Shown here piece after piece: positions 2,868 through 27,037 of a DNA stretch of 64,000 nucleotides. The stretch is from Botryllus schlosseri. Taxonomy: Eukaryota. The position numbers and the translations under genes were made by a program. The notes beneath the pieces were generated by a model. It saw only the letters and a list, made by a program, of their open reading frames with translations, had not been told where the DNA came from and did not search any database. The stretch spans positions 28,272,001 to 28,336,000 of the forward strand of contig CM119377.1 in the NCBI GenBank assembly GCA_051294905.1. Direction: 5' to 3'. Numbering within the stretch: position 1 is the first letter of the stretch; each line of letters begins with the position of its first letter.

Positions 2868-3344
2868 GGTTAGAACTAGGAACCCACTCTTCTTTTAAAC
2901 CCCCCCCCCTATTCTAAAAGCACCCCCATTTTTTTCCTTCTTTTTGGCTAGATGCGCCCCTGCGTGTAAAGATGTTAACGAACTGTCTCATGATCCAAAG
3001 AGAATAGATGGGTAGACTTTGGAGTACTTCGAGGCCTATCTGCGGCCGTAAACGTGATTCACACTATGATGGCGGATCGATGCGGATTTGGCCGATTCAG
3101 TGAGCTCCTTGTGGGGGTTAGAGTTCATTGCGATGGCGAGAGCTCGTTTTACACAATATAATTGATGGCGAGAACTCATTTTACATAGTATAGTTGATGA
3201 AAACTTAGGAACGTATTGGAAGAAGGGTAAATATTTGTTTAGTCCCTCGTGGAGGTTGGACACTTCGACGAACCGACTTTTTTTGAGTCCGCCCTACTTA
3301 TTGGGAACCGCGCGATTTCTGTGAAAACATAGTACAATCTATAT

Positions 3345-4295
3345 TTGTTATTTGATTCAGATATAGTGGCGACTAGAACTATACTAGACGAAATGTGCTA
3401 CGGACTCTTATGTGAACCGACCGCGGATAATAGCTTTGTTATTGAATGGGCAGCTCGGGCACCAGTTTATGTAAGACAAAAATGGGTTATGGGAGCTATC
3501 AGAACCTTACATGTAAAGGAACGGTTAATGAATATATTGCTAGGGACTATCGGATGCGATAGCCCCCGCGTACGGTTTTGGCAATACTGCACCTATCCTA
3601 AGTACAGAGAGGAAATGGAGGCCTTGGGGACTAAGGGCATGGGAAACGTTGGCTGTGAAGAGTGCTGGGTCGGCCTTTACGTAAAGCCCTATTTTCAGCA
3701 GTCTGCCGATGTCAATGAAGTTATGAACTTTTGCGCTCAATGCGTCGCGGAAGCCAGTAGAATGAATGGCGACCTGGGGAAGCTTGATGACGAACATAAG
3801 GGAAACATAATACTCTACGTGCTCTATGCGGAGGCCATATTGACAGGGATCTCGCTACTTTTAGAACAATATAATGCTGAAAGGGAGATGACAATCAGTC
3901 AATCAGTAAAGGCACGAGATTGCGAATATGAATTCCTTTGCGCAGGAAGTCCCGACCCTTGGATATTTGCCTACGGCAATAAGGTGGCCTTTGGCTACAT
4001 GGGAAATAGATTTTCTCTGTTTAATGGGCAGCCATCCGGATTCTACAGGGAAAGAATCGAATCCGCCAATCAAAAACAACAAAAACCAGGCGGTCGGAAG
4101 TTAATGGCCGTAGACGGGCGACCGGAATTTAGCAATTGCGGTTCAAGTGTTCCCAATCATGCAACTCGGGTACCTACATGCGAAACGCCGCGAGTAATCA
4201 ATCTCAATCATCAAGCACCAGTCCTGACTGGGACCTTGAGTCGGCCTTTCCCCGGGGCGGCCGGGGACGATTTGAGGGGAAGTCAAGAAAATTGA
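3345..4295 (+). CDS. Orphan accessory ORF-A (316 aa; first ATG at 3393), Cys-containing, unknown function
   Basis: Long uninterrupted ORF co-oriented with the element, with CxxC-type pairs (CEEC, CAQC). No family recognised. Confidence 0.6.
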   Translation: MLFDSDIVATRTILDEMCYGLLCEPTADNSFVIEWAARAPVYVRQKWVMGAIRTLHVKERLMNILLGTIGCDSPRVRFWQYCTYPKYREEMEALGTKGMGNVGCEECWVGLYVKPYFQQSADVNEVMNFCAQCVAEASRMNGDLGKLDDEHKGNIILYVLYAEAILTGISLLLEQYNAEREMTISQSVKARDCEYEFLCAGSPDPWIFAYGNKVAFGYMGNRFSLFNGQPSGFYRERIESANQKQQKPGGRKLMAVDGRPEFSNCGSSVPNHATRVPTCETPRVINLNHQAPVLTGTLSRPFPGAAGDDLRGSQEN

Positions 4296-4889
4296 ATAAT
4301 CACACAAAGAGATTGGGATAGTTGCGTCAGGGCCTACATCTGCCCATATAACGAGTTATACGGACCTTGTGATAGTTGTAAAAACTAGTATCTTAAAAAT
4401 TCGACTGATTGTCATTGGTGATAAGAGTGATTCGATCAGTTTCGCGGAGAACTCTCCCGAGCGACATTTTACGATGCTACCAGTGAATTCTAACATAAAA
4501 TCCTACTATTATTAGAATATCCTTGCGGGTGGTTACCATTCTATGTATATGCGTGTGCTATGATGACATATCCCAAAATCATTCGCAGAGAGTAATGGGG
4601 TACTCTGACGACTGGCCGGAATTGACTTGACTGTGTGATTGATGCGCTGAGAGAAGGGCGATTCGAGTCGGGACGAGTAATTGCGTACGATATAGTTATT
4701 TTGTGTAAATCTACCGCCTGCGTGCATATTGCGTTACGGAGGAGAAATATTACTGTTTTTCCTCTATTTCATTATATACCGGGCAAATGGGATTGCTAGG
4801 AATGTCTTAATGTAAGTTTTACAAGTGTTGAAATTTGTATTTAGAGAGTAACATCAAATGTCAGGATTATTGACGGGACAGTAGTTAAT

Positions 4890-24970: not shown

Positions 24971-25084
24971 GGAGTTATCCACGAGGTATAACCTTACCCT
25001 ACGACCGACATTAGTAGAACAAGCAAAATTACTGAATACGATACTTCTAAATTATATGGCCTCACAAAGCTGATTCAGGCAGAA

Positions 25085-26632
25085 GTGGGGGACGAAAAGT
25101 TATTCCAGTCTGAATGGATCTATCGGGGGACGTTTTGTGATGGTGCCCTGGTCTATACGCCATATGCCTATAGGAATAATGCGGGGGAGAAATTTACCGC
25201 TCAAACCGTGACGTTAACCGCAACTGATGACCGTGAAAACCATCGCGCTAGAACCACATGGACCACCGAAGTTCCGCAAACTACTTCAATGATGGTGGGC
25301 AGTACGAACACAGAAGCTTTGGGAAATGGGCGTGGCGTAACACCAAGTGAAAAAAGGAAACCAGCAAACAACCGCTCGACACCGTCTCCGGCTTGGGAAA
25401 TGCTAACGACTGCCACTGAAGCAATGTCGTTACCAAGGTTCCCGTCCGCGCACCAGGAAGTCATGAGACGGGGGAAGGAATTGGCGAGCCAAAACAAATC
25501 GGCGGAGGCGATAAGTACCAGAAAAATGACTCGCAAGACCACCACGCAAACGAAAATAACCGACCAAAGGTTAGTAGAGACTAATTGGTCCGGTTTTGCA
25601 GGAACTACGGTTTCCTACCAGAGTTCCTCCGGTCGACATGTATACGGTAATACAACACCCGAGGCGAGTAGAACTGCCTATGTAACGACTAGCCCCCTCC
25701 CCAACACTACCGAAACGAGCGAGACTCCAAGGAATCAGGAGGACGCCGTCGTCCCTTTGGTGAACGTGGAACGACTGACAACAAAAGTACCAAAGAATAC
25801 AGCACTGAGACACCTACCATCCCAAACTCTAGGATGGCGGATGCAAACGACGCTGGTGCAAGTCGGACGATCGCAATCGGTGGTTGAAAAAGAGGGGGAG
25901 TATAAAAGTGTTAAACTAACTGATGTGCCTCATGGGAAGAAACAGCTGCCAACTAGCGCGCGAAACCTACCCGAAGAAACGACGAAAATCAGTGGTGGGG
26001 TGTCCACAACAACGCGTGTGAACCCGGTTACCCCTACAGACGTTCTGCAGGACTCCAGAGGTGATGACGGGACCGACATCAGAACGGACTACCAAAACTC
26101 AGACCACAACCGAAAGGTAAGTACCGAAACAACTGTTTTGTATTTAGCAAGAGACGACAAAGATGACTTGTCCCCGAGGAGGGTCGAACTAAGGAATACT
26201 ACCTTGGAGTCAACGATGGCTGACGCATCACCGCTGCCTGGGCAGAAAAACCCAAGGTTGGGAACACCCGCGCCTGAATATTCCCGATTATCAAGAACCA
26301 CCGTGGGGGAGACAACCACAGATTTCGTTGACTACAACTATACTCGATGGCTGCACGAACTGGTGATGATGGAAGGTGGATATAAGGTAAGAGAATTATC
26401 CTTGATCGATAGGATTATTATGGAAGGTGCGAAACTGATACCTATCGTGGAACCAGTGGTTGTAATAATGGTGGTAACAGGGTTGGTTGCTCTGTCGATA
26501 GTGTTATGGGTAGGTTGTATAAGGTGTCGTCGACGTAGAACCTTGAATCTTCTGAGGAACACGAGGAGACGTAACGGAACAAGTCAATGGATGGCGATAA
26601 GAGTAATACGGAACACAACGGAGAATGAATAA
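25085..26632 (+). CDS. Mucin-like Ser/Thr-rich membrane protein (515 aa)
   Basis: Strong Thr/Ser/Pro bias, C-terminal TM VVVIMVVTGLVALSIVLWVGCI and basic tail RCRRRR. No obvious signal peptide in the ORF. A homologous C-terminus is at 34335-34610. Confidence 0.75.
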   Translation: MGDEKLFQSEWIYRGTFCDGALVYTPYAYRNNAGEKFTAQTVTLTATDDRENHRARTTWTTEVPQTTSMMVGSTNTEALGNGRGVTPSEKRKPANNRSTPSPAWEMLTTATEAMSLPRFPSAHQEVMRRGKELASQNKSAEAISTRKMTRKTTTQTKITDQRLVETNWSGFAGTTVSYQSSSGRHVYGNTTPEASRTAYVTTSPLPNTTETSETPRNQEDAVVPLVNVERLTTKVPKNTALRHLPSQTLGWRMQTTLVQVGRSQSVVEKEGEYKSVKLTDVPHGKKQLPTSARNLPEETTKISGGVSTTTRVNPVTPTDVLQDSRGDDGTDIRTDYQNSDHNRKVSTETTVLYLARDDKDDLSPRRVELRNTTLESTMADASPLPGQKNPRLGTPAPEYSRLSRTTVGETTTDFVDYNYTRWLHELVMMEGGYKVRELSLIDRIIMEGAKLIPIVEPVVVIMVVTGLVALSIVLWVGCIRCRRRRTLNLLRNTRRRNGTSQWMAIRVIRNTTENE

Positions 26633-27037
26633 ATCCGAAGGTAAGAATTGGTGTTTAAGATTTAGATGTAAATACGGGATCTTCATAGATTGTTATAGGG
26701 AAGTACTGAAGTGTAACGTTATAATTTTGGTAAATCGTTAAGAAAAATGGTGATAGGTATCGTGCGTACAAAACAAATCCTTTGGCGCATCGTTTATGAT
26801 GAGTCCCAAGCACTCCGTATTTCACGTAATGGGCGTGAGCAAAAAAAAAAAACTGTGAGTCATGGTAAGATGGCTATGTAACGAAGCATAAATCAATGGC
26901 AGTGCATCGTTTATAATAGGTATCAAGTGAATTATTTTACGTAATGGGCGTAAACGGAAAAAACTGAAACCTCGTAACTAGAAATCTGCTGAGTCATGAA
27001 ATATCAATTCGAGAGAATTATAAAAGAGAAAGGTTGA
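26633..27037 (+). promoter_or_regulatory. Promoter/enhancer-like right-end region
   Basis: Two TT(T/C)ACGTAATGGGCGT motifs (~26820 and ~26935), two TGAGTCA (26856, 26990) and TATAAAA (27019-27025). Homologous to ~34610-34896. Confidence 0.5.

Follow-up and report, generated by a model that had tools for sequence, protein, structure and literature searches.

Reverse-transcribing elements that carry an RNase H are, to our knowledge, known to integrate by means of an integrase or a tyrosine recombinase, or not actively at all. Specifically, 1) the Metaviridae and Retroviridae have an integrase, two long terminal repeats (LTRs) and target site duplications (TSDs) of 4-6 bp; 2) DIRS and Ngaro elements have a tyrosine recombinase (YR) and usually no TSD; and, 3) the Caulimoviridae, non-enveloped plant viruses with a movement protein, have no integrase and combine a protease (PR), reverse transcriptase (RT) and RNase H with tRNA priming, circular episomal DNA and terminally redundant RNA. 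Here we consider a 64,000-nucleotide stretch of the Botryllus schlosseri genome (assembly GCA_051294905.1, contig CM119377.1, positions 28,272,001 to 28,336,000 of the forward strand; hereafter the window), together with related loci elsewhere in the genome. It holds a copy of an element in which gag, pol and env-like genes are joined to a Merlin/IS1595 transposase.

Teratorn, a fusion of piggyBac and an alloherpesvirus found in teleosts, has been proposed to form a circle by excision, and according to the review its particles have not been found (PMC10175614, PMC6431247). Merlin transposons are defined by GG termini and TSDs of 8-9 bp, with terminal inverted repeats (TIRs) of 24-462 bp, and that account nowhere mentions a reverse transcriptase (PMC8101967). 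As regards a further component of the element, Tpt1 is also capable of ADP-ribosylating 5'-phosphate ends (PMC8883491), and its homologue KptA is rare in eukaryotic viruses, yet is present in the polyprotein of a Botrylloides leachii nidovirus (PMC9503650).

We propose that the element is an enveloped, integrase-less reverse-transcribing virus fused with a Merlin transposon, whose life cycle would pass through excision, replication from a circle and transposase-mediated integration. We consider this account probable, and its circle and particle steps are ones that we infer. What the copies establish is a genuine, multicopy element that its transposase has inserted and whose RT is under selection.

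A search of the 496 Mb genome gave at least 66 pol loci of 43-100% identity, mostly without stops (66 of 1459 candidates were scored), and 134 matches to the transposase, from which 90 long ones at 43% identity or more were kept and 44 weaker or short ones, including free Merlin elements at about 28-34%, were dropped. A kept transposase lies on the same strand within 90 kb of 60 of the 66 pol loci, one of these links probably belonging to a neighbour, where chance would give 1.6% per locus; conversely, 88 of the 90 kept transposases adjoin a pol. Two of the six unlinked pols are close to the start of minor contigs (C125 and C94). The elements span 14-44 kb, the commonest family being 38-40 kb, and most copies have open frames. 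The transposase frame (330-349 amino acids) is intact in five of five sister copies of the window element, with D, D and E motifs and, for one intact sister frame, a Pfam DDE_Tnp_IS1595 match at E 2e-13. Identity in the RT rises and falls with identity in the transposase (Spearman rho 0.78; 53 rows, related and non-independent), and the two proteins co-diverge down to 55% RT identity. Because it is intact and co-diverges with the RT, the transposase can be regarded as a fixed part of the lineage.

The preliminary description, made from the letters of the window alone, had allowed that the locus might be a chance stack of independent insertions, to be recognised by other copies carrying an integrase or lacking the transposase. 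The window is indeed rich in insertions (a hAT transposon, an insert at 477-3159 and two decayed copies), but no integrase follows Pol in 24 of 24 loci of other families and the transposase is kept at the 60 loci given above, with common ends and TSDs. Since the linked set recurs across the genome, we regard a chance stack as refuted.

The ends of the element are of a consistent type. In the other families, 24 of 24 fetched loci stop about 250-300 nt after Pol at a common motif ending in CC, and the window's right end, at 27108, lies at a homologous motif. Left ends start with GG, as seen in all end pairs read, and 8-bp TSDs were found in 12 of 13 pairs, spanning all family groups: six of six in one set, a 4.7-kb deleted copy, the 44-kb sister copy on C1, three 10-kb derivatives and a 17.8-kb element of the 57% family. 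The only pair without a TSD is the window with its candidate left end, and the other 12 are separate single insertions with unrelated flanks. Terminal inverted similarity is short and imperfect (17, 16, 13 and 10 of the first 22 nt). The Merlin type of the ends and of the 8-bp TSDs makes it very probable that insertion is the work of the transposase.

Several further arrangements were seen among the copies. A second Merlin-like transposase, about 45% identical, lies 8-17 kb upstream of pol at C1:24289851 and about 30 other loci, and is missing from the window copy. At C5:18373634-18412484 one family element is nested in another in opposite orientation. Two mosaic copies (C2:32310565-32369483 and C9:2838303-2911809) have pol at 80% and a second glycoprotein at 80%, versus 38% in related families, which suggests recombination between families. 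A non-autonomous family of about 10 kb has the window's end types (for example C12:14961718-14971760 and C15:563331-573290; about 15 paired copies of 10-14 kb), and a second class of 12-14-kb end pairs is without a listed pol, transposase or env match (for example C1:19042164-19054584 and C4:19306003-19318450).

Evidence for reverse transcription comes from the primer binding site (PBS) and from selection. The PBS occupies the same position in four families and is complementary to tRNA-Thr(AGU) over 17 nt in the window and 19 nt in locus L074, to tRNA-Ile(AAU) over 18 nt in L073, and over 10 nt in the most distant family (L075). Among 10 pairs of copies the dN/dS ratio lay at 0-0.13 in RT and 0-0.10 in RNase H, and at 0.18-0.29 in Tpt1 where dS could be estimated; for RT it was 0.02-0.13 even between young copies. 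By this measure the RT is under strong purifying selection, and use of a tRNA primer and of the RT is strongly indicated. As a separate observation, a tandem array of about 37 tRNA-Ile-like 3' ends, spaced at 2-3 kb, occupies C12:26016839-26160031.

The gene order is permuted between families. In most, the left end is followed by the transposase, env and the second glycoprotein, then by 10-30 kb of unread sequence, and finally by gag, pol and the right end. The minority arrangement, that of the window's six-copy family and of one 76% lineage, has the transposase, env and glycoprotein directly after pol and the right end after them; in the C1 sister copy it is accessory genes that come after the left end. 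The cyclic gene order is identical across these arrangements, only the end cassette having moved, and the transposase stands where an integrase would be. A circle in which both ends abut would most simply account for the permutation. Moreover, neither two LTRs nor other terminal repeats were found in the element. With a single PBS and in the absence of such repeats, it would need RNA from a circle or a dimer for its first strand transfer. A provirus that is permuted in this way would be unable to template terminally redundant RNA. In the preliminary description a single central LTR and PBS had been proposed, together with a circle integrated by the element's own Merlin transposase. The internal PBS (9732-9748) was recovered and an LTR boundary was not; insertion by the transposase is made very probable by the ends and TSDs, and the circle is indicated indirectly, by the permuted order, the one internal PBS and the lack of terminal repeats, no circle or junction read having been seen.

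On the plus strand of the window the element presents accessory open reading frames (ORFs), a leucine-rich-repeat membrane protein, a 1.2-kb non-coding stretch, a small membrane ORF, gag, pol, transposase, env and a second glycoprotein, as follows.

1-476, plus strand: element-internal sequence, a 96% match to the C1 sister copy, the sharing extending a further 3.5 kb upstream.
477-3159, no strand assigned: secondary insertion or insertions, absent from the C1 sister, which jumps from window 476 to 3160.
3393-4295, plus strand: 300-amino-acid accessory ORF without Pfam match, its start region common to the C1 copy.
4890-5960, plus strand: 356-amino-acid accessory ORF with homologues at four other places, each of them preceding a pol locus by 10-25 kb.
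7589-8515, plus strand: intronless leucine-rich-repeat protein (Pfam LRR_8, E 6e-46) with a C-terminal membrane anchor by hydropathy.
8516-9731, plus strand: non-coding control or leader region, conserved between families, in which a 57-bp repeat occurs four times (9115-9342).
9732-9748, plus strand: PBS, 17 nt complementary to the 3' end (including CCA) of host tRNA-Thr(AGU).
9779-10114, plus strand: 111-amino-acid small membrane ORF preceding gag (ORF list and hydropathy).
10159-13026, plus strand: gag, 955 amino acids, with one CCHC knuckle (zf-CCHC); a Retrotrans_gag-like capsid region is a lead only.
13149-16475, plus strand: pol, with protease, RT, RNase H and Tpt1/KptA (Pfam RVT_1, RT_RNaseH, PTS_2-RNA), without integrase.
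16674-17312, plus strand: N-terminal part of the Merlin/IS1595 transposase (Pfam DDE_Tnp_IS1595, E 3e-11), the frame being open from 16478.
17313-20461, minus strand: independent hAT transposon within the transposase gene, with its own 8-bp TSD at 17305-17312 and 20462-20469.
20470-20682, plus strand: C-terminal part of the transposase, 91-100% identical to the C-terminus of the intact frame in five sisters.
20830-23412, plus strand: env-like glycoprotein with signal peptide, polybasic site, hydrophobic peptide, long helices and membrane anchor.
23495-26632, plus strand: second glycoprotein gene, its frame broken in two in the window copy.
26633-27108, plus strand: right subterminal region and right end, terminating in CC at 27108.

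Profile searches of these ORFs agree with the preliminary description in that gag, PR-RT-RNase H and env form one co-oriented set; by the ORF list and Pfam, gag, pol, the IS1595 transposase and the 860-amino-acid env-like ORF all face the same way. The DDE transposase placed after Pol was likewise confirmed, although the hAT cuts it in this copy. The extent then given to the element, about 21 kb between two copies of an 8-bp direct repeat taken as a flanking TSD, was in error at both boundaries. The repeat exists (2963-2970 and 27038-27045), but it is internal on both sides and not a TSD, because sister copies stay homologous through to 27108 and the element continues upstream of the window, where its left end lies. 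Two candidates for that left end were rejected: a left-end homologue 30 kb upstream (C7:28241732), whose flank differs, and a 6-bp match before window 8848, through which sister copies continue. The six accessory ORFs were also miscounted, the ORFs at 23495 and 25289 being halves of one gene that is a single frame in five of five sisters.

The window copy is damaged, with the hAT in its transposase (13 further copies of this hAT occur in the genome at 96-99%), a split second glycoprotein and the 477-3159 insertion. A 118-bp tandem repeat at 6498-6777, within the element, overlaps a short acidic ORF (6375-6656). Beyond the right end are two decayed, internally deleted copies of the same family, one at 31900-35010 on the plus strand (protease/RT start and glycoprotein end) and one at 45900-47700 on the minus strand (gag end, protease and Tpt1), accompanied by 57-bp-repeat homology at 49228-49276. 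The window also contains a DNA transposon of 3.7 kb whose inverted arms measure 98 bp and whose minus-strand ORFs are fragmented (27725-31386), and, within 37146-44009, 44941-45687 and 57419-61402, putative decayed LINE-like (endonuclease and RT) and LTR-retrotransposon-like ORFs and a putative TIR element with THAP/P-like ORFs. Rfam gave no match in window 1-36000, and ARAGORN no tRNA in the window.

The pol frame overlaps the end of gag in the -1 frame, and gag-pol expression may thus involve a -1 frameshift. Assignment of the protease is backed by a Pfam RVP match in a relative (P0173). The best match of the window RT in the Protein Data Bank is 8r0s (E 3e-16), which we take to be from cauliflower mosaic virus; Ty3 and foamy virus RT structures also match, and for the relative P0022 8r0s ties with Ty3. 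That Pol ends in a Tpt1-like domain, as first described, is weak by Pfam here (PTS_2-RNA, E 0.0012, below the cut-off) and is backed by a 162-residue alignment to solved RNA 2'-phosphotransferases (E 1e-4) and by matches above the cut-off in six relatives (P0001, P0022, P0037, P0171, P0172 and P0174). The motifs RH, R, GH, HxT and MxR..H are invariant in three of three aligned rows, and we take these conserved Arg/His motifs to be catalytic. The domain can be assigned on these alignments to the Tpt1/KptA fold over its full length, with the conserved Arg/His residues in place. The reported lack of an integrase also stood: an integrase profile that recovered six of six controls at E<=1e-52 returned no match below E 0.1 from the window, from loci L025-L087 or from 11 clade proteins, the interiors of the 25-40-kb families lying outside this scope. 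No YR family match was found by Pfam among the 14 window ORFs.

The env-like protein (860 amino acids) has a polybasic site followed by a hydrophobic peptide, an anatomy that fits a class I fusion protein. An Atlas lead of 0.90-0.91 to spike S2 and Fusion_gly came at low recognition, and a single-sequence structure model (pLDDT 57) gave no Foldseek match; we call it a candidate class I-like glycoprotein. The second glycoprotein, one frame of 1047-1049 amino acids in five of five sister copies, has an N-terminal part distantly paralogous to env, then a Thr-rich stalk and an anchor.

Other public assemblies contain proteins that combine RT, RNase H and Tpt1 but have no integrase; their identity is 37-47%, and one of the clusters counts 215 members. 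These proteins and the genome copies group in a long-branched clade that falls among Ty3/Gypsy-like rows (FastTree support 0.996, or 0.983 with P0026), in a tree of 39 rows and 439 columns from which retroviral and caulimoviral references are absent; the nearest neighbour of the clade is an integrase-bearing Pol (P0109). Among the relatives P0032, P0170 and P0001 a dUTPase is inserted after RNase H, or an exonuclease III-like (endonuclease) tail follows Tpt1, so that nucleotide-repair domains recur at the integrase position. Viral contigs yielded no relative with the window Pol or P0026, nor did a first metagenome scan; a second gave locus L071, which has (at 1928-10967) gag, PR-RT-RNase H and a homologous env (E 3e-7) of 1338 amino acids, and a PBS that we take to resemble that for tRNA-iMet. 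L071 is a candidate animal pararetrovirus-like relative. A search for transposase homologues gave nine proteins, without genomic context.

The cycle that we envisage would comprise: 1) insertion of the whole unit by the transposase through its GG...CC ends to give 8-bp TSDs, the insertion being evident from the sequence and the catalysis presumed; 2) excision of the provirus, whose ends would be joined to a circle that restores the gag-pol-transposase-env order; 3) packaging of over-length circle RNA by Gag, and its host-tRNA-primed reverse transcription to a new circle, as might be expected from caulimoviruses; 4) carriage of particles between cells or animals by Env; and, 5) integration of the new circle by the transposase at the end junction. 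Deleted derivatives are also mobile in trans by plain cut-and-paste. The weakest step concerns Tpt1, whose most likely role would be an NAD+-dependent cleaning or capping of the phosphorylated ends of RNA or DNA, be it the primer tRNA, the genome RNA or the cDNA, as a protection from host nucleases.

A number of observations weigh against this cycle. Window-type paired ends are numerous, and 18 of 21 are without a leader or PBS match (40 of 95 candidates were scored in that scan, and the three longest of the 21 pairings, for which no TSD match was checked, may be spurious); three such derivatives were checked and all have TSDs. DNA transposition alone thus moves element ends, cut-and-paste sufficing for derivatives, and the abundance of PBS-less derivatives with TSDs shows that spread inside the genome can do without the RT. 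In addition, the 38-40-kb commonest family exceeds the length described for Burro elements (>30 kb; PMC6431247) and would be a heavy load for an RT. These points, with sizes up to 44 kb, TIR/TSD ends, amplified derivatives of about 10-14 kb, host-repeat-like sequence common to copy interiors and the failure to find a circle, LTR or polypurine tract (PPT), are what would be expected of a giant Merlin that moves by cut-and-paste only, its retroviral module being useful cargo (for example, particles ferrying transposase or sub-genomic RNA) and its RT not copying the whole element. Cargo acting in trans is, however, expected to drift within a genome, contrary to the RT dN/dS between even young copies; PBS complementarity is kept while the tRNA switches, and the cyclic gene order is preserved across the end junction. 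We therefore consider such a cargo role unlikely.

The following also weigh against the cycle. No R/U5/U3 boundary of an LTR was found in the window, and no purine run of at least 11 nt, as a PPT, between 8515 and the PBS; the window copy's own left end was not found, the element extending at least 3.5 kb beyond base 1 on the upstream side. No right-to-left end junction was present among the 12 joints listed for four read runs on the two-ended copy L072, a test in which assembled contigs drop rare forms, 3% of one RNA run gave any signal and run X21 gave 0 reads. Run X23 gave few reads on L072, 90-95% alike, at a depth of about 3 at the transposase 5' end, <1 at env and about 2 at the right end, and no RNA dataset is listed as matching the pol-transposase stretch. 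A move of the terminal gene block via tandem copies could be an alternative route to the permutation. The RT might copy the element without excision circles, using either read-through where proviruses are tandem or nested, or a DIRS-like strand transfer, with the transposase only integrating. Nested and adjacent copies do exist, and the RT and PBS evidence applies equally to such a scheme, but the window has no internal left-end copy, the 12 TSD-flanked pairs are single insertions and no head-to-tail dimer was seen in a search that was not exhaustive, and we find it quite improbable.

Lastly, the transposase linkage is so far known from this genome's copies alone, and L071 has no integrase, Tpt1 or transposase in 13.9 kb. 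A transposase-free relative, and many mosaic families suggestive of repeated entry, would suit passive fossils, in which the DNA of an exogenous integrase-less virus was repeatedly brought in by a Merlin inserted in it, with no way back out; Teratorn has been proposed to have arisen so (PMC10175614). Against this, the transposase is intact and co-diverges with the RT, and derivatives have been mobilised inside the genome, which makes fossils a very improbable explanation.

Returning to the virus-transposon fusion, a fuller version of it is possible, though we would give it somewhat less than an even chance: a still-active lineage of enveloped animal pararetroviruses, temperate-phage-like, in which the Merlin transposase integrates and excises a circle of up to about 40 kb (the largest to be copied by an RT), the Pol-fused Tpt1 protects ends, and transposase-free relatives like L071 represent the integrase-less ancestral form. 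If the fusion is correct, a TIR-type DNA transposase would be a further integration route, one element would unite class I with class II transposition, and a reverse-transcribing virus would have a novel mode of life within a genome; a permuted provirus that needs excision before replication would amount to a lysogeny-like latency in an animal reverse-transcribing virus. Arkhipova's polymerase-by-integrase grid asks whether undescribed combinations of this kind exist (PMC5718144). The copies are young and mostly intact, so that circles, junction RNA and particles can be searched for directly in the host, and the Tpt1-RT fusion offers a testable role for nucleic-acid ADP-ribosylation in retroelement biology.

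Full-text searches, with Repbase, subscription journals and supplements outside their scope, yielded no description of the combination, and a prior Repbase entry is possible. With the Metaviridae and Retroviridae the element shares the gag CCHC knuckle, PR-RT-RNase H order, a tRNA PBS before gag and env after pol, but it is without integrase and two LTRs, has an 8-bp TSD and carries Tpt1 in place of the integrase. Like the Caulimoviridae it has PR-RT-RNase H, tRNA priming and no integrase, and the permutation would imply a circular template, but it has an animal host, envelope genes and active precise integration and is much larger, and no movement protein was matched among the window ORFs. 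As in DIRS and Ngaro, another recombinase replaces the integrase of an RT-RNase H element, but no YR domain was found and TSDs are present. KptA-bearing RNA viruses likewise embed KptA in a viral polyprotein, but these are positive-strand RNA viruses, and the part of that survey consulted names no reverse-transcribing KptA element (PMC9503650). The DDE_Tnp_IS1595 domain, 5'-GG termini, 8-bp TSD and non-autonomous derivatives are those of Merlin/IS1595, whereas the TIRs look short and imperfect (10-17 of 22 nt) beside the 24-462 bp described (PMC8101967), the elements reach 14-44 kb, and RT, Gag and Env are present, so that the transposase is not the sole gene. Teratorn is similar in that virus genes lie in a giant TIR/TSD transposon with its own DDE transposase (PMC10175614, PMC6431247), but here the viral part is reverse-transcribing (gag-pol-env with a tRNA PBS), the transposase is Merlin/IS1595 with an 8-bp TSD and the order is permuted between families; the piggyBac transposase, TTAA target and herpesvirus core genes of Teratorn were not found here. 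On the features tested, the element does not belong to the Metaviridae, Retroviridae, Caulimoviridae, DIRS, Teratorn or canonical Merlin, and by analogy it may best be described as Teratorn-like in joining a virus to a DNA transposase, caulimovirus-like in its replication problem and retrovirus-like in its genes.

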